A stretch of DNA of 55,264 nucleotides, counting the filler, from Sphacelaria rigidula (lineage: Eukaryota): NCBI GenBank assembly GCA_964200075.2. It is 5 parts of 5 records of this genome, joined end to end, with 100 filler letters (N's around TTAATTAATTAA, not from the genome) between each part and the next. Parts side by side here need not be neighbours in the genome. Positions count along the whole stretch, not along the records: positions 44,294 to 55,264 come from CAXNAA020005604.1; 4 more parts are not named here. One strand, 5' to 3'. The notes beneath the pieces are model-generated. The model was given only the letters and a program-made list of their open reading frames with translations. It made no database searches and had not been told where the DNA came from. Positions 6,001 through 55,264 of the stretch are shown here, piece by piece; position 1 is the stretch's first letter; the number at the start of each line of letters is the position of its first letter. A program made the position numbers and the translations under genes.

Positions 6001-6913
6001 TATAGAAGTGCTTCCAAGCCCAACAGCCTGTCAGCTCATTCAAGTTTCTCCCGCCACTTCATAGCGTTACACGTATCAGTATTCACACCAGCAGCGGCAA
6101 CAATACCTACTTCTAATACTGCCGCAAAGGCCCAACAACGAAGTACCGCTCGCCGGGCGAATGCCATGTGGCGGGTTCAGTGGCGTTTACAATATCCCTG
6201 TCAGGGCCCACCGTCACCTCACGCACTGTGGAGAGCCCTTCGCCTGCCCACGCAGGGTAGAGCTGTGTTTCCAGACAGCGCATGACAGGACGCTCAACAC
6301 GTGATGTATGGACAGATATGCGCACTCCTACTTCATTACCCGCCTAGTGTGGACTCCCGGCGCCGATTATTTACTGCTGACGGATACCATTCACGTGAAC
6401 CTGACCCCCGACACAAGGCGCAAAAAAAAGAGTGGCCATCGGCGCATCCTGTGTAGAGGATTTCTGATTGGTGGAGAGGCCGTATGAGCGACGTCGGCGC
6501 TCTAGAATTTTGTTGAAGATGTAAAGTTCAATGTCCCCACCTATGCTCAGTCGACCCAATGTTTTCCAAAGCTCTCTCGGTACTACATTTCTCATAAAAA
6601 AGGCGCTGTCCACGCTGTAGCGACCGTGGTGCAGTAGTTTTTTTTGTCGACTGGTGACTCCACGGTTGGCTTGTCAGTACACTCCGGCCCACGTGCATGT
6701 TCGCGACCAAGCCTCTAATATCATGGTTCACCTACTTCCAATATGAGCCCAACGTATCATTATCTTTGCTGGTTGATTGAAACAGGCTGCTGCTGGATTG
6801 GTGAGCCGGTCTTCAAGAGCGGGTGCGTGACGGCGAAGATAGCAGCAGCAGCAGTGGGACCACCGCGGCCTCGAGATTTTTTTCCAGTACAGTCGTAAAG
6901 GATACGCTTTTTT

Positions 6914-9199
6914 GTGTGCACTAATATGAGTTGCACGACGGGAGCAGCGTATTCCTTAGCGGATAGCGTAAAGCCGAATTTCTGCGCCATACACGCTGTG
7001 GCGGGCATGGTTGATGTAGTGAACAAGCAGTGCGGCAAGAAGGGCTGCTCAAAACGGCCATCGTTCGGTGCAGCCGCTGGCAGGAAGGCGGACTTCTGCG
7101 CTGCACACGCCCCGGCGGGCATGGTCCTTGTAACAAACAAGCGGTGTGGCCAGGAGGACTGCTTCAAACACCCTTCGTTCGGTGCAGCCGGTAGCAGGAA
7201 GGCGGAATTTTGCGCCAAACACGCCCCGGCAAGCATGGTCGATGTAAAGAAGAAGCGCTGCGTCGAGGACGGCTGCTCCAAACATCCAATATTCGGTGCA
7301 GCCGGTGAAGTGAAGGCGCAGTTCTGCGCCACACACGCCCCGGCGGGCATGGTCGATGTAAAAAACAAGCGGTGCGGCAACAAGGCCTGCTCCAAACAAC
7401 CATCGTTCGGTACAGCCGGTGAAAAAAAGGCGCAGTTCTGCGCCGCACACGCCCCGGCGGGCATGGTTAACGTGAGAAACAAGCGGTGCGGCGAGAAGGG
7501 CTGCTCAAAACGGCCATCGGTCGGTGCAGCCGGCGGTAGGAGAGCGGAGTTCTGCGCGATACACGCCCCGGCCGGCATGGTGAGTGTAGGGCGCATGCGG
7601 TGCGGCATGGACGGCTGTTCAAAATACCCATTGTTCGGCGCAGCCGTTGGCAGGAGGGCGGAGTTCTGCGGCGAACACGCACCAGCGAGCATGGTCAATG
7701 TACGCCACAAGCACTGCGGCGAGGAGGGCTGCTCCAAACAACCATCGTTCGGTGCAGCCGGTGGAAGGAGAGCGGACTTCTGCGCCGAACACGCACCAGC
7801 GAGCATGGTCAATGTACGCCACAAGCACTGCGGCGAGGAGGGCTGCTCCAAACGACCATCGTTCGGTGCAGCCGGTGGAAGGACAGCGGACTTCTGCGCC
7901 GAACACGCACCAGCGAGCATGGTCAATGTACGCTACAAGCACTGCGGCGAGGAGAGCTGCTCCAAACGACCATCGTTCGGTGCATCCGGTGGAAGGAAAG
8001 CGGAGTTCTGCGTGGCACACGCCGGTGTAAGAAACAAGCACTGCGACAAGGAGGGCCGCTTTCAACGAGCATCGTTCGGTACAGCCGGTGGCGGGAAGGC
8101 GCAGTTCTGCGCCGCACACGCCCCCGCGGGCATGGTCGATGTAAGAAACAAGCACTGCGTCAAGGAGAGCTGTTCCAAATACCCGTCGTTTGATGCAGCC
8201 GTTGGCAGGAAGGCGGAGTTCTGCGCCTCACACGCCTCGGCGGGTATGGTTGATTTACGAAACAAGCACGGCGGCGGGGAGGGCTGCTCTCAACGACCAT
8301 CATTCGGCGCAGCCGCTGGTGGGAAGGCGGAGTTGTGCGCCACACACGCCCGGCCAGGTGTGGTAAACGTACAAAGCAAGCGGCGCAGCAACGAGGGCTG
8401 CTCCAAATACCCATCGTTCGGTGCGGCCCGTGGTAGGAAGGCGGCGTTCTGCGCAACTCACGCCTGCGCAGGCTCTATGAATGGCAGTGAAAACGCCTTG
8501 CAGCCTTCTTTCACCCGGGTGCGGAAGCACGGGAATGCCAGCCGTCATGCTTCACATGACCTAGCTATGGCGTCGGATGCAGCAGGACGTGTTCAAGAAA
8601 GAAATCGCCTTAACGATGACCCGGCCGGGGGAAAGAATAGTGTCGGTACTGATGATCATGAAGGATCCAGCTCTCCATCGGATGCCGATCCCGACACGAG
8701 CAAGGGGAGTCGTAGCGCTAATTCTCGTCGCAGTCCGCGTGCCATTCGTGGCAAACGACGGAGAGGGAAGGTTTTGACCACATCGCCTGCCGCCTCGGGA
8801 CAATTCCCCGTCGCTGCGGCAGCATTTGAGGTTCCTCTAGGTGGGGCACAGACGCGCATGAAAGTGGAACTTGAGGCGACCATTACGTCTCGGGAAGTTT
8901 CCGAGGGGATGGGAACTAGCGGCGAGCTAAATACTACGCTAGACAGCAGTTGTATCAGTATGGGCAACGGCGGCTCCAGCAGCACCGCTGTAACTAGGAG
9001 TTGCGGTAGTAGCATAGCTAGTAAAAGGAACACAAAGCGACTACGTAAGACGTTGCGGGTGGAGCCGTTATTCGATGTGGTAGCGGGGGATGAAAGGATG
9101 GCTGAAGTTGGGGGAGCCGATTTGAAGTTAGAGTGGGATGTTTCTGCCCGTTCTCGACAGGTGTCAGCGGCAGAATACGGCACGCGAGATCTAGCTTGA
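6914..9199 (+). CDS. EsV-1-7-type Cys/His-rich repeat protein (~14 repeats of ~38 aa) with a low-complexity C-terminal tail
   Basis: 761-aa uninterrupted ORF. The repeat consensus C-x4-C-x-K-x-PSFG-x6-A-x-FC-x2-HAPAGMVxV matches the EsV-1-7 cysteine-rich motif known from Ectocarpus siliculosus virus and expanded in brown algae. The true start is uncertain (GTG 6914, ATG 6926, or upstream splicing). Confidence 0.85.
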   Translation: MCTNMSCTTGAAYSLADSVKPNFCAIHAVAGMVDVVNKQCGKKGCSKRPSFGAAAGRKADFCAAHAPAGMVLVTNKRCGQEDCFKHPSFGAAGSRKAEFCAKHAPASMVDVKKKRCVEDGCSKHPIFGAAGEVKAQFCATHAPAGMVDVKNKRCGNKACSKQPSFGTAGEKKAQFCAAHAPAGMVNVRNKRCGEKGCSKRPSVGAAGGRRAEFCAIHAPAGMVSVGRMRCGMDGCSKYPLFGAAVGRRAEFCGEHAPASMVNVRHKHCGEEGCSKQPSFGAAGGRRADFCAEHAPASMVNVRHKHCGEEGCSKRPSFGAAGGRTADFCAEHAPASMVNVRYKHCGEESCSKRPSFGASGGRKAEFCVAHAGVRNKHCDKEGRFQRASFGTAGGGKAQFCAAHAPAGMVDVRNKHCVKESCSKYPSFDAAVGRKAEFCASHASAGMVDLRNKHGGGEGCSQRPSFGAAAGGKAELCATHARPGVVNVQSKRRSNEGCSKYPSFGAARGRKAAFCATHACAGSMNGSENALQPSFTRVRKHGNASRHASHDLAMASDAAGRVQERNRLNDDPAGGKNSVGTDDHEGSSSPSDADPDTSKGSRSANSRRSPRAIRGKRRRGKVLTTSPAASGQFPVAAAAFEVPLGGAQTRMKVELEATITSREVSEGMGTSGELNTTLDSSCISMGNGGSSSTAVTRSCGSSIASKRNTKRLRKTLRVEPLFDVVAGDERMAEVGGADLKLEWDVSARSRQVSAAEYGTRDLA

Positions 9200-10974: not shown

Positions 10975-11074
10975 NNNNNNNNNNNNNNNNNNNNNNNNNN
11001 NNNNNNNNNNNNNNNNNNTTAATTAATTAANNNNNNNNNNNNNNNNNNNNNNNNNNNNNNNNNNNNNNNNNNNN
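10975..11074. other. Artificial contig spacer (N44-TTAATTAATTAA-N44)
   Basis: 100-nt N run with a central six-frame stop linker. Identical spacers occur at 22049-22148, 33122-33221 and 44194-44293. Confidence 0.97.
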
Positions 11075-22048: not shown

Positions 22049-22148
22049 NNNNNNNNNNNNNNNNNNNNNNNNNNNNNNNNNNNNNNNNNNNNTTAATTAA
22101 TTAANNNNNNNNNNNNNNNNNNNNNNNNNNNNNNNNNNNNNNNNNNNN
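22049..22148. other. Artificial contig spacer
   Basis: N-TTAATTAATTAA-N, 100 nt. Confidence 0.97.
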
Positions 22149-28700: not shown

Positions 28701-29084
28701 TTTCCCCGTATATTTGAATAAAATGATCCCGCCTTTTTTCGTGTTTTTTTGTTTCTGGTTTCACACCATGGTGGGAATTTTATACTTACAATAGGGGGGG
28801 GTGTTGATCCAGGTCGAAAATATATATCTAGCCTTTGTTTTTATTCGCTATTTTGCCAATGCCGTGGCAGGCATTTTCCAATCAGATGAATTGATTAATC
28901 ACAAGATTGGCGTATGCAAGGTAATCAGAAGTGGAACCCTCGCTAGAGTAAAGAAATATATTTGGGAAAGAAGCAGCTAGATACCTGTAGAACAAACGAA
29001 GTAAGGGGTGGCACATCTTCCAGTCCGGGCACCGTAGACCCTCTCCCCCCTTGTCTCTCCTCCTACAGCACATGTTGCAGTACA

Positions 29085-29360
29085 TGGTGAGACACCCATG
29101 AGGAATTGTGAAACCTATGGCTGTCTCTGGAAGTGGTGATGCCAGAAGATGAAGCAACTCATCGCACGCTGTCATCTATACTCAAGATAGGCAGTATGCT
29201 TCGGGCCGAACATTCTCAGCCGAATGCAGCTAGCTCACCCTTCGTGCGACTCGCCGGACACATCACGGCGGTTCTTGCTTGGTGCTTGATTGCGAGCCTA
29301 GTCCGGCGAAAACCCGGCGTGTCTCCGCGCCGGCTTTGCAGGGATGCGAGGCCAATGGAT
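29085..29360 (+). repeat. Partial copy of the ~500-bp dispersed element
   Basis: GAGACACCCATGAGG..GGCTGTCTCTGGAAGTGG..CACCCTTCGTGCGACT..GGGATGCGAGG matches 30655-30930 and 41072-41330. Confidence 0.75.
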
Positions 29361-30440: not shown

Positions 30441-30975
30441 CCCCTATGGGGTTGGGGTCGGTTGGCAATGACGCTGTATAATACGCCACTCACTGCGTAA
30501 GCTCGGCAACCAGGTCACCAATTTTGTTTTGCGCGCTTTTGCGGGGTTTTCGCGGTCATCATCATGGTCGTCGAGCTAGATCATATTGTGCGGGGTGGGA
30601 GAACCTCGATTCCGCAGAAGGGGGACGATCGCACTATAATACGTGATGTTTGAATCGTGAGACGCCCATGAGGCAGTGTGTAAGCCATGGTAGTCTCTGG
30701 AAGTGTGGCGATACCAGAAAATGAAGCACACTCATTGAAGGCTGTCAGCCTAATGCAAGAAGGTAATCAGTAGGCTTCGGGCCGAACAATTTTAGCAGGA
30801 TGCAGCTCACTCGCCCGTCATGCGACTAGCCGAACACATGACGGCGCTTCGCGCTCGGTACTTGATTGCGAGCCTGGTCCAGCGGAAACCCGGCGTTCTC
30901 CGTCCCGGCTTTGGAGGGATGCGAGGTCAATCGTCCTGTGACTACGGCATGCAAGATCATGATTCCCCCCTCTCC
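30441..30975 (+). mobile_element. ~500-bp dispersed non-coding element, near full length
   Basis: Starts GGGGTTGGGGTCGGTTGGCAATGACGCTGT and ends GGCATGCAAGATCATGATTCCCCCC. It is colinear with 40860-41376. Confidence 0.75.
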
Positions 30976-33121
30976 CCCCCGTCCCCGGTACCTCTTACTG
31001 ACTTTTTTTTCTCGCGGATTGATGGAATCGGCACTTTAGCAGCTCGTCGACCTTGATCACTTTGTACTGGCAACTATCCTTCTCACATCTCGGGCAACGG
31101 ATACTGGACCAGAAACACAAAGGCTCCATATTGTCGGGATTCCGAACAATAATACTCACCGATAAGGGTGTTGATGCACGAATCTTACGATTACTTCCAT
31201 GGCATACTCGAGGGACACTGCTCAAGCCATCGCGAGAAACACAAGCCGAGAGAAAAAGGAGACTAAAAACGGCCAAATATGCACTCACTTGCGTGTGCCG
31301 AGCACATACCCTCTTACCGTCGACTTGATATTCATATTCCGTATGGGGGAAGATGTCCTGCTTGATCATGGACGACTGTTCGGTTTCCTGTAGAACCGGC
31401 ACATGGGTTTGAGCCCGCTTTTGGAGTCAATCGTCTTCCAGAAAGCACGCAAGTACTGTTTGGTGAAGGGGAAGGAGGGGAGAGGGGGGAGATGATGTGC
31501 AGTGTCAGTTAGCATCTGTACTTTTGGGGTCCGGGACGACGAGATGATGAATATAGTAGTCAGCATCAGAAGTCTTCAGAATTCGTAGTTGTTGCAGTTT
31601 TTTTTTTATTTTTTCTCGAGAACTATTCTTCGTTACTACTTGAACGTGTGCTAGCGCCGGTAGATTAAGGGGAAAGCGTAGGCCGCGCTCAAACGACAGC
31701 GCCCGAGTTGGTGTTTTTTGGGGCGATACGCACTAGATACCCCGTTTGTCAGGAGGGTATTATTGACCGTTTTTTATCCAATGAAAACAGTTGTCCGGCT
31801 CTTCCGCAACGACGCGGTAAATATTTAATAAAGTGAATATGTATACAATTCTTCGCGGTAACAATCGAGAACGTGTTTCTCTCCTATACTGCCCAGACCT
31901 CAGTCTAGCATTTTCTGCGGATGGCCTCTTTTCGTTTTTTTTCGCATAACATTTTTCATGAGCACTCGAAAGTGCTTGCGTCGAAAGTTTTAGCAAAATA
32001 AGCAGACCGTGCTCAGATCACAATGCCCAAGGTTGGTGTTGTGGGGGCGATACGGAGTAAAGACACTGTTTATCAGGAGAGTGTTATTGACCGTGAATGG
32101 TCCAAGAAACATAGTTTTCCGGCTTGAGCGCAGTGAATAGGTGGAATTTCAAAAGAAATAATATTTTTTGAGTCTTCGCTTATATGATCGGGATCGAGTC
32201 GGTCCACCGAAAATACCGAAAAGTTCGACCCCGGGATTGCGCTTTCGCAGGACCCTCGAAGATCGGTCAAGCCCGTAAGTCACTCTATATTGACCGCAGA
32301 TATTTTTACTTCCAATATTTGTCAAGATGATAAAAATATCTCCGGATGCCCATTTTTTGGCATCCAACAGTTACCGTGATGAGCGGGGGGAAGCGTAACA
32401 AATCTGGAAAATATTTGAGAAACTAAGAAATTACGATTTCTACATACTTCTGACGCTGACTACTGTAGTGACATCCACGAGAAATCGAAGAAGAGTAGCA
32501 GGTAAGAAACGTATCTTGGAGAACTCTCAAACTTTGTCGAAATCACGGCACTGTGTTGTCATGGCTAATCGATCTGACGGACCCTGGCGGGTTGAAAAAG
32601 CGTACAAGCATGCGTGCACACGCGCACCTAGCCGTGCTTGCCTTCAATTCCTCACCCCATCCCTCCCTGTGCTTTTGGATGATTGCAGTACGTCCAACGT
32701 CAACCTTCAGGGGATCGTCGAAGGCCAGACGGTGCGACGGCAACTGCAGCAAGCTCCCGCGGGGGTGCATCTTCGGAATCGTCCGGCAGAGCTTTCATGA
32801 GGGCGTATGTCGGCTCGAAATCTGAAGGCACGAGGCTCATAAAATGGAGAGAAGGGTCGTCGAAGCTGCCGGGACTGCTGGTGAGCTGCTCTCGCTTTTG
32901 AATCCCAAGCGTTGTTTTCGGTGTGGCCATTGAATCGGATGCTACATGTCGGTGGGGGCATGCGGGTGACAGTGGAGAAGTGCGGGAGGGGGCAGTTGAC
33001 TCGAGGGAGTAGTCCCCGTTTCGGTTCGCTTGATTGGTGGTTAATATACCAGATCTAGGTAAAGGGGGGTGTACTCATGATCATGCATGCCATAGTCATG
33101 ACACCATTGACCTCGCATCCC

Positions 33122-33221
33122 NNNNNNNNNNNNNNNNNNNNNNNNNNNNNNNNNNNNNNNNNNNNTTAATTAATTAANNNNNNNNNNNNNNNNNNNNNNN
33201 NNNNNNNNNNNNNNNNNNNNN
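33122..33221. other. Artificial contig spacer
   Basis: N-TTAATTAATTAA-N, 100 nt. Confidence 0.97.
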
Positions 33222-33889
33222 CATCGGGAGTCCGCCCCTACAAAGCCGGGACGGAGCACGCCGGGTTCTCGACGGACCAGGCTTCTTTTTCGAGAAGGGG
33301 GTGTACTCATGATCATGCATGACTATGGAGGGGGGGGGGGAGGAGTAGGCCTAAATTGTCACACGCAGCATATGCGTTGGAGTACTTTTTTATGTACTGC
33401 AAGAATTGTCTCTTTACCGCAAAATATTATTTCGATCCCCATCCCCACCCCCCTCCCCCCAAACTCGTCCACCCCGCCTCGAGGAAGGTGCCCGTGTGAT
33501 CAAGGGGAGGAGCATACTAATTCGTTGCTTGCCTTATTAATATTAATAGACCTTTGACCATTGACCACGCATCCCTTTCGAGACGGAGCAAAAACCCGGG
33601 GAAGAGGTGAAATCGGTTCATACCCTGCTATTTCTTGAGATCGAATAGCGTGTAAACAGCTTCTCCCGCCAACTAGTCACCTGAGTGAAGGCCTTTGTCA
33701 GTGTGTTCCCCGCTGGACATTTGTATACAAGTAATCATCAAAGCTCAAACGCTAACCGGGGGGCAACAACGAGAAAACACAAGGAGAAACAAACTACAGC
33801 ATGAAATGGATATCGGGACACTCCATATGCCTATTTTTTCCCCCAAGATTGTGTTCACGGGTATACTTGAGAAAAAAACGTGTCGGGCT

Positions 33890-34665: not shown

Positions 34666-34674
34666 GGACTGTAA

Positions 34675-35677
34675 GGCTACTTCTTATGTGTCAAAAAATG
34701 AATCCTGTTGAAAAGTGCATTGTTGGCCCTTCTCCGTCGTTTTTCCCCCGAAAAGAGGGCTGGGCGGATGTTGACACCTTGGAATGACTTGCTCTACTCG
34801 CCGAGGCCGTTCCAGATCACCCCTGCGTTTTCCGTAGGTCACGGTTTCGTTCTTGGTCAACGTTGCATTTTCAATAACAAACGGCCAAGTTATCAAAAAG
34901 CAGGGTGGCAACTGAAGTTTTTTTGGTAACTTGACTGTTCGTTATTGAAAATGCAAATTCGACCAATAACGCAGAGGTGCTCTGGAACGGCCTCGGCGAG
35001 TAGAGCAAGTCATCCCAACGTGTCAGCATCCGCCTAGCCCTCTTTTCGGGGGAAAAACGACAGAGAAGGACCAAAGATGCACTTTTCAACAAGATTCATT
35101 TTTCGATACATAAGAAGTAGCCTATATGTATCGAAAAAACTCTATCAGAAAACGCGTTTCCTGATAGAAACTTTTCCGATAACGTTTTTCGATAGCCCAA
35201 GGTTATCAGAAAATCACGATTTTCTGATAACCTTGGGCTATCGAAAAACGTTATCGGAAAAGCGGTTGAACTCGTTTGAAGACGTTTGAACACACATTAC
35301 AGCCCGATACAGTACCTGTGATGGCTTGGCTTACATCACTACTAATGCTGTCGCCGGTGCTTGCGGGCATTCAGCGTGTTGCATCATTGTCCTTCGCTCG
35401 CCAGTAGCGTGGTGGCACTCTACCCCATGAGAACAGCAGAGGGCAGGGTCGTCGATGACAAACTTACTATGTGGATAGAAGTACAGCCATTCAGTACGAA
35501 CCGCACACCACGACAGGACAGCAGAGTGCTGCGTTTCTCTCGCGCGCCCCATACGTTTTCAATGTTGATAGCGCGTCGATCACGTGAGAAGGGCTACTTT
35601 GAAAAACTCTGTTGGAAAACGTGTTGTTGAAAAAGGGCTTTTCTGATAACGTGCTTTTCGATACACAAGAAGTAGCC
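34675..35677. mobile_element. Composite PIF/Harbinger-like MITE(s) with long internal palindromes
   Basis: TAA|GGCTACTTCTTATGTGTC at 34675 and GATACACAAGAAGTAGCC|TAA ending at 35677 give a 3-bp TAA flank on both sides. 34675-35122 is itself a long hairpin ending in GAAGTAGCC, and there is a second palindrome at ~35171-35261. Confidence 0.75.
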
Positions 35678-40564: not shown

Positions 40565-40859
40565 GTTCGACTTGTTTTTCTGAGCGTGGTGGACGTGCGT
40601 GCGTGCGTGTATATGTGTGTGTGTTGTGGATGCCAGTTGAAAAGGAGGATATTGATCTGCTTTTGGTTATGTGTATTGTTTGTGTTATTTTCCAAGAAAC
40701 ATTGCGAATAAGTTTTTTTTAAGCATTTTGTTTTTCTTCCATGGCGCGTTCCGTGTTCTGTGTGTGTGTGTGTATGTGTGTGTGTTGTGTTGTTCTCGCC
40801 GCCAAAGGACTATGATGTTGTTGATGTTTTTACGTCTTTTGCCATATGTCGAATACCCC

Positions 40860-41376
40860 CCCCCCCAATTCCCTTTTGAGGGTTGGTGTCGGTTGGCAAC
40901 GACGCTGTAGAATACACCACTCGCTGCGTACGTTAGGCAACCAGGTTACCTTTTTTTCGCCTGCGACTTTTTGCGGTAACGGTCATGATGGCCGAGCTAG
41001 ATCATGTTGTACGAGGCAGAGAACCTCAAATCCGCGCAAAGAGGATGACCATGGGACGTAGTGTTTAAATGATGAGACACCCAGGAGGCACTGTGCAACC
41101 CGTGGGTGTCTCTGAAGTGGCGTCATCACAAAACAAGGCAACTCATTCGAGGCTGTCATGCATATGCAAGATGATTAGTTCGCTTCGGACCGAACACCCT
41201 TAGCAGGATGCAGTTCACCCTTCGTGCGACTGGTCAAACACATCATGGCGCTTCGCGCTTGCTGATTGCGAACCTGGTCCGGCCAAAACCCGGCGTGCTC
41301 CATCCCGGCTCTGAAGAAATGCGAGGTCAATAGTCTCATCACTATGGCATGCAAGATCATGAGCATACCCGCCCCC
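40860..41376 (+). mobile_element. ~500-bp dispersed element, full copy
   Basis: GAGGGTTGGTGTCGGTTGGCAACGACGCTGTAG ... GGCATGCAAGATCATGAGCATACCCGCCCC, homologous to 30441-30975. Confidence 0.8.
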
Positions 41377-41596: not shown

Positions 41597-44165
41597 GGGG
41601 GTATGCTCATGATCGTGCATGTCGTAGTCATAACACCACTGACCTCGCCTTCCTACAAAGCCGAAGCCGGGAGGGCGCACGCCGGGTTTTGGCCGGACCA
41701 GGTTCACCATCACTAAGCGCGAAGCGCCATGATGTGTTTGAGCAGTCGCACGAAGGGTGAGCTGCATCCTGCTAAGGGTGTTCGGTCCGCAGCGAACTAG
41801 TCATCTTGCATATGTATGACAGCATCGAATAAGTTGCTTCATTTTCTGGTATCGCCACTTCCAGGGAGCAGCCATGGCTTTCACACTGCCTCATGGGTGT
41901 GTCACCATTTGAACATTGCGTAGTACGACTATCCCCTCTGCGCGGTGTTGAGGGTCTCCCACCCCGTACAGTTATGGGCGCGCCTGACCCCCCAAAATGG
42001 GCAAAAAAAGTGTCACCGACCAAAAGCACGAACAGACCGACTTCTGGGGCTTATCCAGGCCCGTGGAGGAAAATGCGCCTTACGTCATCGGAAGAGAACG
42101 GCATGGATCCAAAATTCATATCGAAAAAAAGTGGACTGCCATCTAAAATCAGAACCCTACCGTTTTTTCCGTTGTACCTCATATATTACATACCACCGCG
42201 TCGCCTTGTGTCCGCGCTTGCGATACCCTCGCATGCAAGAAGGCTGATGGGGTTGAACCAACCCAACGCACACCGAGAACACTCGGGCAAGGGCGGTAAA
42301 TACATTCCCTGAAGGAAGTGAGGCCTTGGTAGACCCCAAATCGGCTTCTGTGGCGTCGATTTCAACGAAAACGCGTTGTGCGCACCCGAGGAGCACACGG
42401 GACCGTCAGCCCTACTCAAATTCCGATTCTCCTTGTAAGACCCAAATCAAGTAGTATCAACCATGAACATTTGTAGCCCAACGCCGGTAACTGAAACCAG
42501 TAAGCTCTGAACCATTTTTGGGAGGGGATGCGGATCGAAATTGGGCCAAAATGAGCCACATGTACTGATGAACTTCAACGGGGGCGGCCCTTAAACAGAC
42601 GAGTGGAGTACAATTAGTCACCGGGTGTGTAATGTGGGCTGGGCGGGTGTTGGTCCACAACCTCGTCATGTTTTGAGGAGCTTGATTTATCGGCTACCAT
42701 TATTCCACAGCTTTTGTCGGATGAACGACTCGCCTTGTGCAAGGATATTTGTTGTTCCGTGGGCATGGCTTTTCATTTCATACGATATTCATTAACCCTT
42801 TGACCGCGACGGTTGGTCACATGCTGAATTGGCATCATTTTTCACTTGAAAAAAGTATGCATGGTCCAGATGGACTACCCTCGTGGTCTAGGGGTTCATC
42901 GGACCCCAAAGCTATTGTTTTGCAAGAGGGGGTGAAAACAAACGGTCGTCCGTCACCCACCATTGCCAATACAACAGATGCGTGTCTACAGACGGGTGGG
43001 TCCACTGAAAGACATGATTGGGACTTCGGTGCCATGTGGCTTCAGCGAAAGTGGGCCGACGACTTTATGCTGTCTGTTGTGTCGTCTTGGCGCAGTAACC
43101 CTAACCCATTCGGGAGCGTGAGTTGGTCAATCTTGATGTTGGTGTGAAAACCGAAATCCGGATCTTTCACGGGGGCTGTGCTACTAGCATTCTCCTAGCG
43201 TCCCAGAACGCGTTCTTGTCTTAATCGGCGCCCGGGACGCCGATTTGAGGTCTGGCAACGCACCCTTCGCCTACGAAACACGTTGCACCCGCCTTGCCCG
43301 ATGGTTCTCGGTATGCTTTCGTTTGGGCCAGTGTCATAATTTGTCTTCTCCGCTGCTGCGAGGTCGCGAAGATGATTCTTGCTTCTGGGGGCTCGGTCGA
43401 AGGTTCAAATTCTACAACATTCCACATACAGTACCCGATGTATCAATCACCTGCTCTATCAAGAGTCATTCATGGCTGTCATTTATTCCGAGGCCGTTAG
43501 ACAGGGGGGAGGTTTCGCGTTTTGTGTAGACCGGCGGATGGAGGTGCGTGTTTGCGATCACAGCCCAATCTGTCTCAGAGAATGCTCATCGCCACGGCCA
43601 TCGATTGGGATGCGACTTTTTGCATCATCTGCGCCAAGACGACAGCTACAATTGTACCGGTTGGTTTGTTTTATTTTATCAGGATGCGAGTTTTATAACG
43701 AATTAAGTGAAGAAAAAAACATGTTTTTTTTGCGACTTTTTCGATTACCGTCACGTCTTAGGTAAAACCAACCTGTACAATTGTAGCTTGGACAAATACA
43801 CGCCGGTGAGTAGCCGAGCCACGCCGTGGTTCGTCCTCCCGAACAAAAAAACCTCCAAAGCATGGAATGGAAACCCTACTCAAATCAAAAGGACTTTGAG
43901 GGATTTTGCGGCGTGCATAGTCAGAGGATGAACGAGATCTCCGGTCTGTTCGTGCTTTTGGTCGGTGACACTTTCTGGGCTCATTTTGGCGGGTCAGGCG
44001 CGCCCATGACAGTATAATCTAATTCGACACCGTCATGGTTACCACAAAATAACGCAATCGAGAAAAAAACGGTGATCTGGTTGTCTCGCGCGTGAGGGGC
44101 GTATTTTACAGCGTCGTTCCCAACCGACGCCAACCCTTGAAGGGACGAATATGGGGGGGGGGGGG
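41597..44165 (-). mobile_element. Inverted copy of the ~500-bp element, split by a 2-kb insertion (pieces 41597-41972 and 44009-44165)
   Basis: 41597- GGGGGTATGCTCATGATCGTGCATG... runs to CCCACCCCGTACAGT. It resumes after the insertion as ACAGTATAATCT...CCAACCGACGCCAACCCTTGAAGGG. Confidence 0.8.
41973..44008. mobile_element. Non-autonomous DNA transposon, ~68-bp TIRs, apparent 5-bp TSD (ACAGT)
   Basis: The left end TATGGGCGCGCCTGACCCCCCAAAATGGGCAAAAAAAGTGTCACCGACCAAAAGCACGAACAGACCG is mirrored at 43941-44008. ACAGT lies at 41968-41972 and 44009-44013. No transposase ORF is recognisable. Confidence 0.85.
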
Positions 44166-44193: not shown

Positions 44194-44293
44194 NNNNNNN
44201 NNNNNNNNNNNNNNNNNNNNNNNNNNNNNNNNNNNNNTTAATTAATTAANNNNNNNNNNNNNNNNNNNNNNNNNNNNNNNNNNNNNNNNNNNN
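44194..44293. other. Artificial contig spacer
   Basis: N-TTAATTAATTAA-N, 100 nt. Confidence 0.97.
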
Positions 44294-45624: not shown

Positions 45625-46149
45625 ATGGACGGAACCACTGAAGATAGCCTGGCGGCACCGGTGCTTGCTTGCCCGGACAATATCATCGCCGCCATCTTGG
45701 CGAAGGGCAAGCACCAGAAGCGATGTCCTGCCTGCACGACCCCAGCCGAGCTTCAGGCGATGAACTGTCTTGCCTGTAAGCATGCACTTGATCTAATATC
45801 GCACAACTCCGTACGGTCGCCGGCTCCGGGGACCCACATGCCGAGTTCCGGCGGAGACTCTGTCATGTTAACGCCAGCAGCGGCAGCAGCGGCGGGCGTG
45901 GAACGGCGTCAAGGTCACACCCCCCGTGCCGGCCGAGCCTGCGCCGCCGCCGTCGCTGTCACTGGGAAAGATCGCTGCAGCGACAGGTGGAGCCCTTGCT
46001 TCTCCTCTTTCTCCTCCTCCTCCTCCTCCGCGGCGGCGGCACCGAATGAGGCAGACGCGGAACATGGTCGTCATTCGAAGTTCCGATCCCCGGTGCGTGA
46101 AGTACCTCAAACGATGGCTTCCGCTCAAACATCAGCCGTCAGCGTGTAA
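45625..46149 (+). CDS. Hypothetical protein or fragment with a CxxC-x10-CxxC zinc-ribbon-like motif followed by low-complexity sequence
   Basis: ATG at 45625 is in frame within ORF 45553-46149, which contains KRCPACTTPAELQAMNCLACKHAL. Codons are GC-rich. The stop codon coincides with the start of the repeat array. Confidence 0.45.
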   Translation: MDGTTEDSLAAPVLACPDNIIAAILAKGKHQKRCPACTTPAELQAMNCLACKHALDLISHNSVRSPAPGTHMPSSGGDSVMLTPAAAAAAGVERRQGHTPRAGRACAAAVAVTGKDRCSDRWSPCFSSFSSSSSSAAAAPNEADAEHGRHSKFRSPVREVPQTMASAQTSAVSV

Positions 46150-49100
46150 AGGAGAGGAAAACTCACATGGGAGCAGAAGTGTTGCCAGCAGGCGCGAGCA
46201 GGGTAGGCGGAGAGTTGTCCTCGCGTGGGTAACTGCCTTACAGCAACCACGACGAGGACGGCGCACATGGTTCAAAGCGGATAACCATGAGCGGCGACTG
46301 CAGTTCGCCCAGCATTAGTTGTGCCCGGATACACGTGGTGGCCGGGGGCTTCACGTACGGCGGCGGCGGTGGTGGCGGTGAGGTGTACAATACACCACCC
46401 CCCCAATAGAAAGGTCAAGTCTGCACGGTTGGAGACGAAGGGTTTGGTCGCGATCCCAGTTCCGTGTGCACGAGAAACCACCGGCAGAAGCGGGGGGTTA
46501 CGGGATCTTTCTCGCCCCTTTTTGCGTCTCCGCCGTGCACTACGGGATTCCCCGAGGAAAATGCTCTGCCCCCGGCCGTGGGGTGTACTCATGATCATGC
46601 CATGTGCATGGCCTGATCATGAGTACACCCCACGACAGGGGGCAGAGCATTTTCCTCGAGGAATCCCGTAGTGCACGGCGGAGACGCAAAAAGGGGCCAG
46701 AAAGTGCCCGTAACCCCTCGCTTCTGCCGGTGGGTTCTCGTGCACACGGAACTGGGATCGCGACCAAACCCTTCGTCTCCAACCGTGCAGACTTGACCTT
46801 TCTATTGCGGTGGTGGTGTATTGTACACCTCACCGCCACCACCGCCGCCGCCGTACGTGAAGCCCCCCGCCACTTCGTGTCCCCGGGCACAACTAATGCC
46901 AGGCGAACTGCAGTCGCCGCTCATGGTTATCCGCTTTGAACGATATGCGCCGTCCTCGTTGTGGTTGCTGTAAGGCAGTAACCCACGCGAAGACAACTCT
47001 CCGCCTACCCTGCTCGCGCCTGCTGGCAACACTCCTGCTCCCACCTGAGCTTTCCTCTCCTTCTACGGGATTCCCCGAGGAACACGCTCTGCCCCCTGCC
47101 GTGGGGTGTACTGATGATCAGGCCATGCGCATGGCCTGATCATGAGTACACCCCACGGCAGGGGGCAGAGCGTATCCCTCGGGGAATCCCGTAGTGCACG
47201 GGGGAGACGCAAAAAGGGGCGAGAAAGATCCCGTAACCCCCCGCTTGTGCTGGTGGGTTCTCGTGCACACGGAACTGGGATCGCGGCCAAAATCTTCATC
47301 TTCAACCGTGCAGACTTGACCTCTCTATTGCGGGGGTGGTGTATTGTACACCTCACCGCCGCCAACGCCGCCGCCGTACGTGAGGCCCTCCGCCACTTCG
47401 TGTCGCCGGGCACAACTAATGCGAGGCGAACTGCAGTCGCTGCTCATGGTTATCCGCCTTGGATGATGTGCGCCGTCCTCGTCGTGGTTGCTGTCAGGCA
47501 GTAACCCACGCGAAGACAACTCTCCGCCTACCCTGCTCGCGCCTGCTGGCAACACTCCTGCTCCCACCTGAGTTTTCCTCTCCTTCTACGGGAATCCCCG
47601 AGGGACACGCTCTGCCCCCTGCTGTGGGGTGTACTCATGATCATACCATGAGCATGGCCTGATCATCAGTATACCCCACGGCAGGGGGCAGAGCGTGTTA
47701 TTCGGGGAATCCCGTAGTGCACGGCGGAGACGCAAAAAAGGGCGGGGGAGATCCCGTGACCCCCCGCTTTTGCTGGTGGTTTCTCGTGCACACGGAACTG
47801 GGATTGCGGCAACAACCTTCGTCTCCAACCGTGCGGACTTGACCTCTCTATTGGGGGGGTGGTGTATTGTACACCTCACCGCCACCACTGACGCCGCCGT
47901 ACGTGAGGTCCTCCGCCACTTCGTGTCCCCGTGCACAACTAATGCTGGGCGAACTGCAGTCGCTGCTCATGGTTATCCGCTTCGAACGATGTGCGCCGTC
48001 CTCGTCGGTGTTGCTGTATGGCAGTAACCCACGCGAGGACAACTCTCCGCCTACCCTGCTCGCGCCTGCTGGCAACACTTCTGCTCCCACCTGAGTTTTC
48101 CTCTCCTCCTACGGGACTCCCCGAGAGACACGCTCTGCCCCCTGCCGTGGGGTGTACTCATGATCAGGCCATGCGCATGGCCTGATCATGAGTACACCCC
48201 ATGGCAGGGGGCAGAGCGTTCCACTCGGGGAATCCCGTCGTGCACGGCGGAGACGCAAAAAAGGGTCAGAAAGATCCCATAACCCCCCGCTTGTGCTGGT
48301 GGGTTCTCGTGCACACGGAACTGGGATTGCGACCAAAAGCTCCATCTCCAACCGTGCAGACTTGTCCTCTCTATTGGGGGGGTGGTATCTTGTACACCTC
48401 ACCGCCGCCACCGCCGCCGCCGCCGTACGTGAAGCCCCCCGCAACTTCGTGTCCCCGCGCAGAACTAATGCGAGGCGAACTGCAGTCGCCGCTCATGGTT
48501 CTCCGCTTTGGACGATGTGCGTCATCCTCGTCGGTGTTGCTGTAAAGCAGTAGCCCACGCGAGGACGACTCTCCGCCTACCCTGCTCGCGCCTGCTGGCA
48601 CCACTCCTGCTCCCACCTGAGTTTTCCTCTCCATCTACGGCATTCTCCGAGTGGAACGCTCTGCCCCCTGCCGTGGGGTGTACTCATGATTATACCATGC
48701 TCATGGCCTGATCATGAGTACACCCCACGGCAGGGGGCAGAGCGTGTTCCTCGGGGAGTCCCGTAGAAGGAGAGGAAAACTCAGGTGGGAGCAGGAGTGT
48801 TGCCAGCAGGCGCGGGCAGGGTAGGCGGAGAGTCGTCCTCGCGTGGGTTACTGCCTCACAGCAACCACGACGAGGACGGCGCACATGGTTCAAAGCGGAT
48901 AACCATGAGCGGCGACTGCAGTTCGCCTAGCATTAGTTGTGCACGGGGACACGAAGTGGCGGAGGGCCTCACGTACGGCGGCGTCGGTGGTGGCGGTGAG
49001 GTGTACAATACACCACCCTCCCAATGGAGAGGTCAAGTCCGCACGGTTGGAGATGAAGATTCTGGCCGCGATCCCAGCTCCGTGTGCACGAGAACCCACC

Positions 49101-52100
49101 AGCACAAGTGGGGGGTTACGGGATCTTTCTCGCCCCTTTTTGCGTCTCCCCCGTGCACTACGGGATTCCCCGAGTGAAACGCTCTGCCCCCTGCCGTGGG
49201 GTGTACTGATGATCAGGCCATGCGCATGGCCTGATCATGAGTACACCCCACGGCAGCGGGCAGAGCGTGTCTCTCGGAGAATCCCGTAGAAGGAGAGGAA
49301 AACTCAGGTGGGAGCAGGAGTGTTGCCAGTAGGCGCGAGCAGGGTAGGCGGAGAGTTGTCCTGCGTGGGTTAGTGCCTTACAGCAACCACGATGAGGACG
49401 GCGCACATGGTTCGAAGCGGATAACCATGAGCGGCGACTGCAGTTCGCCCAGCATTAGTTGTGCCCGGGGACACGAAGTGGCGGGGGGCCTCACGTACAG
49501 CGGCGTCGGTGGTGACGGTGAGGTATAAAATACACCAACCCCCAATAGAGAGGTCAAGTCTGCGCGGTTGAAGGTGAGGGGTTTTGCCGCAATCCCAGTT
49601 CCGTGTGCACGAGAACCCACCAGCAGAAGCGGGGGGTTACGGGATCTTTCTGGCCCCTTTTCGCGTCTCTCCCGCGCATGGCCTGATCATGAGTACACCC
49701 CACGGCAGGGGGCAGAGCGTGTCCCTCGGGGAATCCCGTAGGGCACGGGGGAGACGCAAAAAGGGGCCAGAAAGATCCCGTAACCCCCCGCTTTTGCTGG
49801 CGGGTTCTCGTGCACGCAGAACAGGGATTGCGACACAAACCTCCATCTCCAACCGTGCAGAGTTGACCGCTTTACTGGGGGGGTGGTGTATTGTACACCA
49901 CACCACAACCAGCGCCGCGGCCGCCAGACGTGAGGCCCTCCGCCACTTCGTGTCCCCGGGCACAACTCATGCTGGGCGAACTGCAGTCGCCGCTCATGGT
50001 TATCCGCTTTGAACGATGTGCACCGTCCTCGTCGTGGTTGCTGTAAGGCAGTAACTTACGTGAAGACAACTCTCCGCCTACCCTGCTCGCGCCTGCTGGC
50101 AACACTCCTGCTCCCACCTGAGTTTTCCTCTTCTTCTACGGAATTCTCCGAGAGACACGCTCTGCCCCCTGTCGTGGGGTGTACTCATGATCATACCATG
50201 CGTATGGCCTGATCATCAGTACACCCCACGGCAGGGGGCAGAGCGTTTCACTCGGGGAATCCCGTAGTGCACGGGAGAGACGCAAAAAAGGCCAGAAAGT
50301 GCCCGTAACCCCCCGCTTGTGCTGGTGGGTTCTCGTGCACACGGAACTGGGATCGCGGCCAAAACCTTCATTTCCAACCGTGCAGACTTGACCTCTCTAT
50401 TGGGGGGGGTGGTATCTTGTACACCTCACCACCGCCACCGCCGCCGCCGTACGTGAAGCCCCGCGCCACTTCTTGTCCCCGAGCAAAACTAATGCTAGGC
50501 GAACTGCAGTCGCCGCTCATGGTTCTCCGCTTCGAACGATGTGCGTCGTCCTCGTCGGTGTTGCTGTAAGGCAGTAACCCACGCGAGGACAACTCTCCGC
50601 CTACCCTGCCCGCGCCTGCTGGCACCACTCCTGCTCTCACCTGAGTTTTCCTCTCCTTCTTTGGGATTCTCCGAGTGAAACGCTCTGCCCCCTGCCGTGG
50701 GGTGTACTCATGATAATACCAGAATGTATTATCATGAGTACACCCCACGGCAGGGGGCAGAGCCTGTTCGTCGGGGAGTCGCGTAGAAGGAGAGGAAAGC
50801 TCAGGTGGGAGCAGGAGTGTTGCTAGCAGGCGCGGGCAGGGTAGGCGGAGAGTCGTCCTCGCGTGGGTTACTGCCTCACAGCAACCACGACGAGGACAGC
50901 GCACATGGTTCAAAGCGGATAACCATGAGCAGCGACTGCAGTTCCCCCAGCATTAGTTGTGCACGGGGACACGAAGTGGCGGAGGGCCTCACGTACGGCG
51001 GCGTTGGTGGTGGCGGTGAGGTGTACAATACACCACCCCCCCAATAGAGAGGTCAAGTCCGCACGGTTGGAGATGAAGATTCTGGCCGCGATCCCAGCTC
51101 CGTGTGCACGAGAACCCACCAGCACAAGTGGGGGGTTACGGGATCTTTCTCGCCCCTTTTTGCGTCTCCCCCGTGCACTACGGGATTCCCCGAGTGAAAC
51201 GCTCTGCCCCCTGCCGTGGGGTGTACTGATGATCAGGCCATGCGCATGGCCTGATCATGAGTACACCCCACGGCAGGGGGCAGAGCGTGTCTCTCGGAGA
51301 ATCCCGTAGAAGGAGAGGAAAACTCAGGTGGGAGCAGGAGTGTTGCCAGTAGGCGCGAGCAGGGTAGGCGGAGAGTTGTCCTGCGTGGGTTAGTGCCTTA
51401 CAGCAACCACGATGAGGACGGCGCACATGGTTCGAAGCGGATAACCATGAGCGGCGACTGCAGTTCGCCCAGCATTAGTTGTGCCCGGGGCCACGAAGTG
51501 GCGGGGGGCCTCACGTACAGCGGCGTCGGTGGTGACGGTGAGGTATAAAATACACCAACCCCCAATAGAGAGGTCAAGTCTGCGCGGTTGAAGGTGAGGG
51601 GTTTTGCCGCAATCCCAGTTCCGTGTGCACGAGAACCCACCAGCAGAAGCGGGGGGTTACGGGATCTTTCTGGCCCCTTTTCGCGTCTCTCCCGCGCATG
51701 GCCTGATCATGAGTACACCCCACGGCAGGGGGCAGAGCGTGTCCCTCGGGGAATCCCGTAGGGCACGGGGGAGACGCAAAAAGGGGCCAGAAAGATCCCG
51801 TAACCCCCCGCTTTTGCTGGCGGGTTCTCGTGCACGCAGAACAGGGATTGCGACACAAACCTCCATCTCCAACCGTGCAGAGTTGACCGCTTTACTGGGG
51901 GGGGGGTGTATTGTACACCACACCACAACCAGCGCCGCGGCCGCCAGACGTGAGGCCCTCCGCCACTTCGTGTCCCCGGGCACAACTCATGCTGGGCGAA
52001 CTGCAGTCGCCGCTCATGGTTATCCGCTTTGAACGATGTGCACCGTCCTCGTCGTGGTTGCTGTAAGGCAGTAACTTACGTGAAGACAACTCTCCGCCTA

Positions 52101-55100
52101 CCCTGCTCGCGCCTGCTGGCAACACTCCTGCTCCCACCTGAGTTTTCCTCTCCTTCTACGGGATTCTCCGAGAGACACGCTCTGCCCGCTGCCGTGGGGT
52201 GTACTCATGATCATACCATGCGTATGGCCTGATCATGAGTACACCCCACGGCAGGGGGCAGAGCGTTTCACTCGGGGAATCCCGTAGTGCACGGGGGAGA
52301 CGCAAAAAGGGCCAGAAAGTGCCCGTAACCCCCCGCTTGTGCTGGTGGGTTCTCGTGCACACGGAACTGGGATCGCGGCCAAAACCTTCATTTCCAACCG
52401 TGTAGACTTGACCTCTCTTCTGGGGGGGGTGGTGTATTGTACACCTCACCGCCACCACCGCCGCCGCCGTACGTGAAGCCCCGCGCCACTTCGTGTCCCC
52501 GAGCAAAACTAATGCTAGGCGAACTGCAGTCGCCGCTCATGGTTATCCGCTTTGAACCATGTGCGCTGTCCTCGTCGTGGTTGCTGTGAGGCAGTAACCC
52601 ACGCGAGGACGACTCTCCGCCTACCCTGCCCGCGCCTGCTGGCACCACTCCTGCTCCCAACTGAGGTTTCCTCTCCATCTACGGGATTCTCCGAGTGAAA
52701 CGCTCTGCCCCCTGCCGTGGGGTGTACTCATGATAATACCAGAATGTATTATCATGAGTACACCCCACGGCAGGGGGCAGAGCCTGTTCGTCGCGAAATC
52801 CCGTAGAAGGAGAGGAAAACTCAGGTGGGAGCAGGAGTGTTGCCAGCAGGCGCGAGCAGGGTAGGCGGAGAGTCGTCCTCGCGTGGGTTACTGCCTCACA
52901 GCAACCACGACGAGGACAGCGCACATGGTTCAAAGCGGATAACCATGAGCGGCGACTGCAGTTCGCCTAGCATTAGTTGTGCACGGGGACACGAAGTGGC
53001 GGAGGGCCTCACGTACGGCGACGTCGGTGGTGGCGGTGAGGTGTACAATACACCACCCTCCCAATGGAGAGGTCATGTCCGCACGATTGGAGATGAAGAT
53101 TCTGGCGGCGATCCCAGTTCCGTGTGCACGAGAACCCACCAGCACAAGCGAGGGGTTACGGGATCTTTCTGGCCCTTTTTTGCGTCTCCCCCGTGCACTA
53201 AAGGATTCCCCGAGGGACACGCTCTGCCCCCTGCCTTGGGGTGTACTCATGATCAGGCCATGTGCATGCACATGGCCTGATCATGAGTACACCCCACGGC
53301 AGGGGGCAGAGCGTGTCTCTCGGGGAATCCCGAAGAAGGAGAGGAAAACTCAGGTGGGAGCAGGAGTGTTGCCAGCAGGCGGGAGCAGGGTAGGCGGAGA
53401 GTTGTCTTCGCGTGGGTTACTGCCTCACAGCAACCACGACGAGGACGGCGCACATGGTTCGAAGCGGATAACCATGAGCGGCGACTGCAGTTCGCCCAGC
53501 ATTAGTTGTGCCCGGGGACACAAAGTGGCGGAGGGCCTCACGTACGGCGCCGTCGGTGGTGGCGGTGAGATGTACAATACACCACCCTCCCAATGGAGAG
53601 GTCAAGTCTGCACGGTTGAAGGTGAAGGTTTTGGTCGCAATCCCAGTTCCGTGTGCACGAGAACCCACCAGCAGAAGCGGGGGGTTATGGGATCTTTCTC
53701 GCCTCTTTTTGCGTCTCCGCCGTGCACTACGGGATTCCCCGAGGGACACGCTCTGCCCCCTGCCGTGGGGTGTACTGATGATCAGGCCATGCGCATGGCT
53801 TGATCATGAGTACACCCCACGGCAGGGGGCAGAGCGTGTCCCTCGGGGAATCCCGTGTTGCACGGGGGAGACGCAAAAAGGGGCCAGAAAGATCCCGTAA
53901 CCCCCCGCTTCTGCCGGTGGGTTCTCGTGCACACAGAACTGGGATTGCGACCAAAACCTCCATCTCCAACCGTGCAGACTTAACCGCATTACTAAGGGGG
54001 TGGTGTATTGTACACCACACCACAACCAGCGCCGCGGCCGCCAGACGTGAGGCCCCCCGCCACTTTGTGTCCCCGGGCACAACTCATGCTGGGCGAACTG
54101 CAGTCGCCGCTCATGGTTATCCGCTTCGAATCATGTGCGCCGTCCTCGTCGTGGTTGCTGTAAGGCAGTAACCCACGTGAAGACAACTCTCCGCCTACCC
54201 TGCTCGCGCCTGCTGGCAACACTCCTCTTCCCACCTGAGTTTTTCTCTCCTTCTACGGGATGCTCCGAGGGACACGCTCTGCCCCCTGCCGTGGGGTGTA
54301 CTCATGATCATACCATGCGCATGGCCTGATCATCAGTACACCCCACGGCAGGGGGCAGAGCGTTTCACTCGGGGAATCCCGTAGGGCACGGGGGAGACGC
54401 AAAAAGGGGCGGGCAAGACCCCGTAACCCCCCGCTTCTGCTGGTGGGTTCTCGTGCACACGGAACTGGGATCGCGGCCAGAATCTTCATCTCCAACCGTG
54501 CGGACTTGACCTCTCCATTGGGAGGGTGGTGTATTGTACACCTGACCGCCACCACCGACGCCGCCGTACGTGAGGCCCTCCGCCACTTCGTGTCCCCGTG
54601 CACAACTAATGCTAGGCGAACTGCAATCGCCGCTCATGGTTATCTGCTTTGAACCATGTGCGCTGTCCTCGTCGTGGTTGCTGTATTAACATCAGTACAC
54701 CCCACGGCAGGGGGCAGAGCGTTTCACTCGGGGAGTCCCGTAGAAGGAGAGGAAAACTCAGGTGGGAGCAGGAGTGTTGTCAGCAGGCGCGGGCAGGGTA
54801 GGCGGAGAGTTGTCCTCGCGTGGGTTACTGCCTTACGGCAACACCGACGAGGACGACGCACATCGTCCGAAGCGGAGAACCATGAGCGGCGACTGCAGAT
54901 CGCCTAGCATTAGTTGTGCCTGGGGACACAAAGTGGCGCGGGGCTTCACGTACGGCGGCGGCGGTGGCGGCGGTGAGGTGTACAATACACCACCCTCCCA
55001 ATAGAGAGGTCAAGTCTGCACGGTTGAAAATGAAGATAATGGTCGCAATCCCAGTTCCGTGTGCACGAGAAACCACCGGCAGAAGCAGGGGGTTACGGGA

Positions 55101-55264
55101 TGCTTCTGGCCCTCTTTTGCGTCTCCGCCGTGCACTACGGGATTCTCCGAGTGAAACGCTCCGGTCCCTGCCGTGGGGTGTACTGATGATCAGGCCATGC
55201 GCATGGTATGATCATGAGTACACCCCACGGCAGGGGGCAGAGCGTGTCCCTCGGAGCATCCCGT
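46147..55264. repeat. Mixed-orientation tandem array of ~523-bp units with 65-bp terminal inverted repeats (at least 18 units; runs off the contig end)
   Basis: Unit = IR (CATGGCCTGATCATGAGTACACCCCACGGCAGGGGGCAGAGCGTGTCCCTCGGGGAATCCCGTAG) + ~390-bp core + reverse IR. Junction centres are at ~46605, 47128, 47651, 48174, 48700, 49223, 49675 (half), 50201, 50722, 51243, 51695 (half), 52221, 52742, 53266, 53792, 54318, 54690 (half) and 55200. Core orientations are A B B B B A A B B A A B B A A B B A. Confidence 0.95.

Follow-up and report, generated by a model that had tools for sequence, protein, structure and literature searches.

A tandem array of ~523-bp units in mixed orientation, joined at ~132-bp palindromes, in the brown alga Sphacelaria rigidula

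In Tribolium, satellite arrays contain inverted subarrays with conserved inversion sites, and those of T. madens are described as having macro-dyad symmetries (PMC13081366). Stacked miniature inverted-repeat transposable elements, or MITEs, derived from hAT transposons, both tandem and inverted and with internal inverted repeats, are reported at inversion breakpoints of Atlantic cod (PMC12368964). In Drosophila, dimers produced by double insertion of hobo and of the P element expand into satellites which keep an 8-nt target motif between the terminal inverted repeats (TIRs); the tandems of transposable elements (TEs) described in that work are mostly head-to-tail, the inverted ones being rare and deemed unable to expand, and head-to-head arrangements are considered as likely selected against (PMC5932611). 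Here we describe an array of ~523-bp units in both orientations in the brown alga Sphacelaria rigidula, located at positions 46149-55264 of a stretch of 55,264 nt (hereafter, the window) which joins five parts of the assembly GCA_964200075.2, the array being in the part that comes from record CAXNAA020005604.1. Most of the units abut at ~132-bp palindromes and much of their alternating orientation comes from a copied block of four units. The explanation that we favour, to which we give a probability of about 0.68, is a locus-restricted, non-coding and probably transposon-end-derived tandem repeat, shaped by a few old palindrome-mediated inversions and by block amplification. Among the possibilities raised by the initial annotation of this DNA, the best fit is the one that it had set against its own proposals, that is, a static satellite with old inversions.

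The satellite of T. brevicornis is said to have a complex monomer with inversely oriented subunits. Like the Tribolium satellites described in PMC13081366, the array of S. rigidula changes orientation within itself, carries long dyads that are capable of forming hairpins and has inversion sites inherited by amplification. The Tribolium arrays are reported as megabase-scale, (peri)centromeric and of very high copy number, with specialised and diverged subunits at the inversion sites (PMC13081366), whereas the array presented here is of ~9 kb or more, low-copy and found at one locus, its monomer joints are themselves 132-bp palindromes, and the mixed orientation resides within a four-unit repeat. 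With the cod stacks it shares short, non-coding and TIR-bearing units placed in tandem in both orientations, as well as palindromic dot-plot patterns (PMC12368964). For the cod stacks, a role in promoting inversions through ectopic recombination is proposed, and the hAT family of their units is identified and has copies throughout the genome (PMC12368964), whereas for the array our search of the window turned up neither a superfamily nor a target-site duplication (TSD), an autonomous partner or full units dispersed elsewhere. TIR-to-TIR joints are also a feature of the Drosophila TE tandems, and growth by unequal exchange, which is described for them, may apply here too (PMC5932611); unlike them, the array has no constant spacer, and a block of mixed orientation did expand. 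In other organisms, the centromeres of cichlids are described as organised around inverted elements (PMC13652916), and for brown algae, centromeres without satellites are reported (bioRxiv 10.64898/2025.12.07.692804). The subtelomeric satellite of Ectocarpus has a ~98-bp unit with TTAGGG motifs (PMC11541908), a unit different from ours. In the main text of a survey of Ectocarpus TEs, where miniature inverted-repeat elements are given by their full name and the terms 'MITE', 'palindrom' and 'foldback' are absent, there is no array of comparable kind (PMC12477816), and our literature search found no description of one in brown algae.

The array was mapped by BLAST (E < 1e-5) of one reference unit, 47129-47651, against the window. 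It consists of 18 contiguous units of ~523 bp and the first 64 nt of a 19th; on the right side it runs off the end of the window, the contig ending inside the array and at a palindrome. In a full unit, a ~391-nt core lies between a 66-nt arm and its reverse complement. The units are ~3-14% diverged, recent block copies excepted, and GC content is ~0.60 in the array against ~0.50 in the flank. For units 1-18 the orientation string is - ++++ --++ --++ --++ -, identical to the one read by the initial annotation (A B B B B A A B B A A B B A A B B A), and its count of at least 18 diverged units in both orientations was also recovered. Head-to-tail, head-to-head and tail-to-tail joins, which it had reported as all occurring, account for 9, 4 and 4 of the 17 junctions among the 18 units, respectively. 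The period is fixed, as in tandem repeats, with 521-526 bp between palindrome centres; Tandem Repeats Finder was silent on the array because the longest period allowed was 500, below the length of the unit. Unit 1 (46149-46604, minus strand) lacks the outer inverted-repeat arm and is the mirror partner of unit 2, with 94% identity, while units 2-5 (46606-48699, plus strand) follow one another head-to-tail. The left boundary of the array coincides exactly with the core/arm boundary of unit 1, so the array starts without an arm, and a sensitive search of the left flank found neither similarity to the unit nor a decayed older unit. Neither BLAST at the same threshold nor a sensitive search found a full unit in the remaining 46 kb, and the window contains no telomere repeat dimer. 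The array is a real and tidy structure, probably restricted to one locus.

Since the same arm is inverted at both ends of the unit, any two abutting units form a palindrome of ~132 nt. Such palindromes are found at 15 of 18 junctions, including the one to the 19th unit. A symmetry scan located 15 centres, with arms 80-95% complementary over 64-65 nt and with distances of 978 and 882 bp between centres at incomplete junctions, and an inverted-repeat search of the array gave 14 inverted pairs. We also found 33 occurrences of a 27-nt arm motif (up to 3 mismatches), all within 46563-55243, when none was expected from 100 shuffles. The palindrome at 47063-47194 is a typical complete junction, with two arms of 66 nt that are 95% complementary, and as single-stranded DNA it has a predicted folding energy of -80.9 kcal/mol (z = -20). 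The other centres are at ~46605, 47651, 48174, 48700, 49223, 50201, 50722, 51243, 52221, 52742, 53266, 53792, 54318 and 55200. The gap between abutting arms is 0-6 nt and the centre is variable: the standard one reads ...GGCCATGC|GCATGGCC..., and the types found are CG, T, A, CGT, CAGAAT and a symmetric 6-nt extension. No spacer resembling a TSD separates the arms at the junctions, and the left edge of the array likewise has no duplication, in agreement with the absence of TSDs between units that had been annotated.

The earlier statement that inverted repeats flank most units holds for the 15 palindromes and has to be limited at four places, since the junctions at ~49677 and ~51697 have one arm, that at 54684 is a deletion and unit 1 is without its outer arm. 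The head-to-head junction at 49610-49741 (~49677) consists of a minus core, a single arm and a plus core, and an identical copy is present at 51630-51761 (~51697); the equivalent junction of the third block keeps the full palindrome. The tail-to-tail junction at 50699-50746 has the asymmetric 6-nt centre CAGAAT, which is repeated at 52719-52766. Units 14 and 15 meet at 53238-53295 in a perfect palindrome whose centre is 3 nt longer per arm than the standard and reads …CATGTGCA|TGCACATG…, a single instance. In the deletion junction (54670-54700), unit 17 breaks off at unit position 366 and is followed at once by a shortened tail arm, that of unit 18, with the loss of 156 nt. There is no sign of arm-to-arm correction: the differences between arms number 6.6 within a unit, 6.4 within a junction and 6.3 over all pairs, and this equality gives no evidence of arm correction or of co-evolution of the arms of a unit. 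The head arm, the core and the tail arm have nucleotide diversities of 0.07, 0.095 and 0.11, respectively, and the best part of the arm is matched in conservation by several windows of the core; as the diversity of the arms is similar to that of the core, we see no sign of constraint on the arms. Elsewhere in the window, a cluster of inverted repeats at 34674-35262 comprises 156-nt arms (92%; 34674-34829 and 34968-35123), 52-nt arms (34848-34971) and a perfect palindrome with 45-nt arms (35171-35262), and long palindromes are therefore evidently not rare in this genome.

The best self-alignment of the array pairs 49676-53717 with 47652-51689 (94.5% over 4050 nt), with a shift of ~2.02 kb (~2024 bp). 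Copy 1 of the block was delimited by this self-alignment and includes units 4+ 5+ 6- 7- (47652-49678, ~2.02 kb); copies 2 and 3, supported by the unit identities as well, include units 8+ 9+ 10- 11- (49676-51698) and 12+ 13+ 14- 15- (51696-53792). The last block, 53793-55200, is rearranged and has unit 16+, a truncated unit 17+, which belongs to the clade of the minus units 6, 10 and 14, and unit 18-. Units in the same position of different blocks are 93-100% identical (7/11, 100%; 8/12, 99%; 6/10, 97%; 9/13, 95%), whereas units in different positions are 87-91% identical. Since identity between blocks is higher than identity within a block, the AABB pattern is that of a copied block and few independent flips are required. 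The alternation is a four-unit higher-order repeat (+ + - -) amplified at least 3 times, and is largely not the result of independent flips. In a maximum likelihood tree of the 18 cores, five orientation changes are required, and strongly supported branches make at least two of them unavoidable. Orientation is mixed in the clade {6-, 10-, 14-, 17+}, with a support of 96/98, and also in the edge pair {1-, 2+}, with a support of 90/93, its members being 94% identical and forming a mirror with 456-nt arms. Orientation is no more clustered on the tree than in shuffles, 141 and 108 of 500 being equally low. Orientation has changed more than once, in at least two events as judged by the tree and probably in three to four when the tree is combined with the layout, and the breakpoints that can be placed are all in palindromes. 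Given that the units are ~10% diverged, most of these events are old. A parsimonious history would begin with an old two-unit inversion that created the block, followed by block amplification, a mirror duplication at the left edge and, in the last block, an inversion or mirror event with a deletion.

Public sequencing data offer an independent view of the locus. Five public runs, none of them on record as RNA, share 12-36% of the sampled words of the region, a low share for which coverage could be the cause as an alternative to divergence. Logan contigs from four runs (three samples, two studies) were aligned to one unit, on which the junctions show as joints. Variant contigs over the unit were present in all four runs, in 97-212 pieces per run. 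The left boundary of the array was also found in the four runs, as a loose end at position 47587, which is the core/arm boundary in the reference unit, with 28 of 30 letters of the flank as in the window. The head-to-tail joint, the single-arm head-to-head joint (47129/47198, opposite strands) and the asymmetric tail-to-tail centre, with the same letters, were each found in contigs of three of the four runs. The characteristic junctions of the assembly are thus real and common to genomes which are seemingly slightly diverged. Contig depth summed over the unit is ~5-25x that of the boundary contig, a very rough figure given that summed depth is not a copy number, and it suggests some 5-25 copies, of the order of one array of 18 units.

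The inner part of the array arms is shared with the terminus of family X, an unclassified dispersed repeat of ~0.5 kb with at least seven pieces in the window and no TIRs seen. Family X begins GGGGGTGTACTCATGATCATGCATG and has a G-run at its other end. The terminus at 33064-33121 (plus strand) has its first 18 nt identical to the inner part of the arms; other pieces were recognised by sequence similarity at 29081-29356 (-), 30449-30970 (-), 33296-33340 (+), 40856-41373 (-), 41597-41958 (+) and 44038-44163 (+). Outside the array, the 18-nt inner-arm motif GGGGTGTACTCATGATCA has exactly two copies (33066 and 33298; 0 expected), both at family X termini, and the flanks upstream of the shared motif are unrelated among family X copies. 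About 45 nt of the terminus can be aligned to the palindrome centre with a 7-nt gap. A global comparison of family X with the unit found no similarity past the terminal motif, and as a hairpin the family X terminus is not significant (z of +1.1 to -0.6). The shared motif runs from the GGGG end toward the palindrome centre, and the central 52 nt of the palindrome resemble a mirror-doubled family X end inside a longer palindrome rather than a unit whose borders are family X ends facing outward. Judging from these sequence resemblances, the probable ancestor of the palindrome is the end of a transposon; the link with family X is a lead on the origin of the palindrome and no demonstration of mobility of the unit. 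Two of the family X copies are arranged head-to-head, 225 nt apart (41373/41597). A family X copy is split by a ~2.05-kb segment (41967-44014) lying between 73-nt inverted repeats (90% complementary), which is probably the nested insertion of a TIR transposon.

The units have no coding capacity: most of them contain stops in all six frames and there is no conserved open reading frame (ORF). The window has 29 stop-to-stop ORFs of at least 150 aa; 25 of them were scanned against Pfam, and the 4 omitted overlap the ORF at 6899-9199. Neither a recombinase or transposase nor a viral gene was found among these 25 ORFs, a scan that leaves split eukaryotic genes and the sequence past the contig end uncovered, and for recombinase and transposase genes this agrees with the initial annotation, which saw none. 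Only one of the 25 had a match above the curated cut-off, to EsV_1_7_cys, and one other had sub-threshold matches of low complexity. The ORF with the match, at 6899-9199 (plus strand), encodes 766 aa, in which EsV-1-7 cysteine-rich repeats occur 14 times (Pfam PF19114, E = 3e-170), a feature indicative of a brown alga; the family is named for the phaeovirus gene EsV-1-7, and the ORF may be of host or of viral origin. An exact scan of 2.9 million viral contigs with three array motifs gave 0 matches, as did an exact-motif scan of metagenome contigs, and Rfam gave 0 matches in the window at gathering thresholds.

The array is probably the result of ectopic homologous recombination, or of replication template switching, between palindromes. 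Relative to any other palindrome of the array, each one is a direct repeat and an inverted repeat at the same time. Pairing in direct register would lead to deletion or duplication of blocks, and pairing in inverted register would produce a seamless flip of the intervening sequence. In this sense, a few old flips or mirror duplications, some of them at the array edges, may have been followed by amplification of one four-unit block (+ + - -) through unequal exchange, which would yield the AABB pattern. Small events would have come later, among them the loss of a single arm at the head-to-head joint, asymmetric and symmetric changes of the centre and the 156-nt deletion. As the joints are palindromic, recombination or template switching alone could account for the amplification, the inversions and the mirror pairs, and a dedicated enzyme would not be required. 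Long perfect palindromes are unstable, which may be the reason for the asymmetric centres, and the single-arm loss removes a perfect centre. The proposal of the initial annotation that a symmetric joint has no direction is sustained in that inversions occurred at junctions, and is left unsupported as regards an active enzyme system acting on them. Nothing found here suggests a new enzyme system, and the array may well be static at present.

Several observations weigh against this explanation. The orientation order over kilobases comes from one assembly, whose contig ends inside the array, and the short-read contigs bridged no full head-to-head palindrome. Such contigs are blind to minority orientations, so ongoing flipping would be compatible with them, and the support given by depth is limited, as summed contig depth does not equal copy number. 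Some features were found in contigs only. These are an inverted joint that links unit positions ~23 and ~205 on opposite strands, a 'CG' centre variant that is not in the window, a low-depth palindrome centre with 25 nt similar to family X, and loose ends located within the tail arm (47608, 47616, 47625 and 47630), none of them in the window. Such joints and loose ends imply that more copies or loci exist beyond the 9 kb seen; the ~23/~205 joint and the family-X-like centre may be located in the part of the array that was left unassembled or belong to the version of another strain. The symmetric lengthening at 53238-53295 is the change expected from off-centre opening of a hairpin followed by fill-in, and suggests that hairpin or cruciform processing took place at least once. 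As for the origin, the link with family X is only 18-45 nt long, and the polarity of the motif is opposite to that of a simple model in which the unit is a MITE with family X ends.

A mobile miniature element inserted repeatedly end to end, in either orientation and beside existing copies, would explain a non-coding unit of ~523 bp with terminal inverted repeats of ~66 bp, the inner arm motif that is common to the terminus of the dispersed family X, and the contigs that join arm fragments to unrelated sequence. Repeated MITE transposition had been one of the three mechanisms initially proposed, and we consider it unlikely. The spacing between arms, 0-6 nt, has no TSD length, whereas tandems derived from double insertions retain such a motif (PMC5932611). 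In addition, the remaining 46 kb of the window contain no solo unit, the array has an edge without an arm, contig depth is, in rough terms, of the order of one array only, the regular pattern comes from block amplification, and the polarity of the shared motif is reversed with respect to the family X terminus. We find it somewhat harder to believe that the 52-bp centre of the palindrome, as a mirror-doubled transposon-like terminus, is still a hairpin or cruciform site processed by a nuclease or transposase encoded elsewhere, or by the replication fork, and that the array is a self-rearranging stack of cassettes, whose cores would go on being inverted, duplicated and deleted. The footprints of such activity would be the symmetric lengthening of a centre, the precise losses of an arm and the additional types of junction that only the other samples show. 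If true, this would be a eukaryotic enzyme-assisted route to make and reshuffle a satellite from a single transposon end.

An assembly artefact, in which the orientation switches come from reads that were mis-joined or folded back where a tandem repeat had been collapsed, would fit with a contig that stops inside the array at a palindrome and with independent contigs that bridge no full head-to-head palindrome. Mirror partners are, however, 88-94% alike and not identical, and three junction types together with the left boundary recur in contigs from two studies, so that we find an artefact very unlikely. Shufflons come with a recombinase gene beside them, with sites that are short and specific and with coding ends that are alternative. 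The array resembles them in having several segments between inverted copies of one site, in either orientation, and a recombinase encoded elsewhere that keeps flipping and reshuffling the cores at the palindromes would be in line with a symmetric site at every complete junction, with at least two separate orientation events and with the one centre that is symmetrically extended. Unlike shufflons, the array shows no recombinase in the 25 of 29 ORFs scanned, no short specific sites, and non-coding cores without alternative coding ends. Conservation is no higher in the arms than in the core, the centres are variable and partly asymmetric, the same characteristic junctions are found in other samples, the ~10% divergence of the units makes most events old, and the pattern is mostly that of one copied block. 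An active array of this type, another of the three mechanisms proposed, is hence slightly less plausible even than an artefact. The remaining one, an integrated concatemer of a hairpin-ended mini-replicon related to protelomerase systems or viruses, would take the palindromes as unresolved telomere junctions. Poxvirus concatemer junctions and the telomere resolution sites of N15 and Borrelia have alternating units and a conserved centre, and require a resolvase; brown algae, on the other hand, can carry integrated phaeoviruses, as the initial annotation had pointed out in favour of this mechanism. The array shares with those junctions long, near-perfect palindromes that join genome units and resemble replicated hairpin telomeres. 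A replicon of this kind predicts strict alternation of head-to-head and tail-to-tail joints, whereas 9 of 17 are head-to-tail here; the centres vary, with no conserved centre of cleavage type, the units are ~10% diverged, no resolvase, viral or protelomerase-like gene was seen in the ORFs scanned, with EsV_1_7_cys as the sole match above cut-off, and the three motifs had no match in the viral contigs. We give this mechanism hardly any credence.

Under the preferred explanation, palindrome-mediated inversion and block amplification, the locus constitutes a clean and small natural example of how a tandem array becomes liable to seamless inversion, and to amplification as well, when its monomers have inverted ends. 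It also indicates that a block of mixed orientation can still expand, something judged unlikely for inverted tandems in the Drosophila work (PMC5932611). Long palindromes break assemblies, and the contig analysed here ends in one; they can also be fragile sites or sources of hairpin RNA, and the locus deserves attention in genome finishing and in small-RNA work.

Away from the array, the window contains four identical blocks of 100 nt (44 N, TTAATTAATTAA, 44 N) at 10975-11074, 22049-22148, 33122-33221 and 44194-44293, with a spacing of ~11,073 nt. The block at 33122 breaks a family X copy whose halves adjoin in other copies, and the blocks are inserted linkers and not biology. Between 12001 and 16000, the plus strand is strongly purine-skewed, with a GC skew of 0.24-0.28 and an AT skew of 0.24-0.30.

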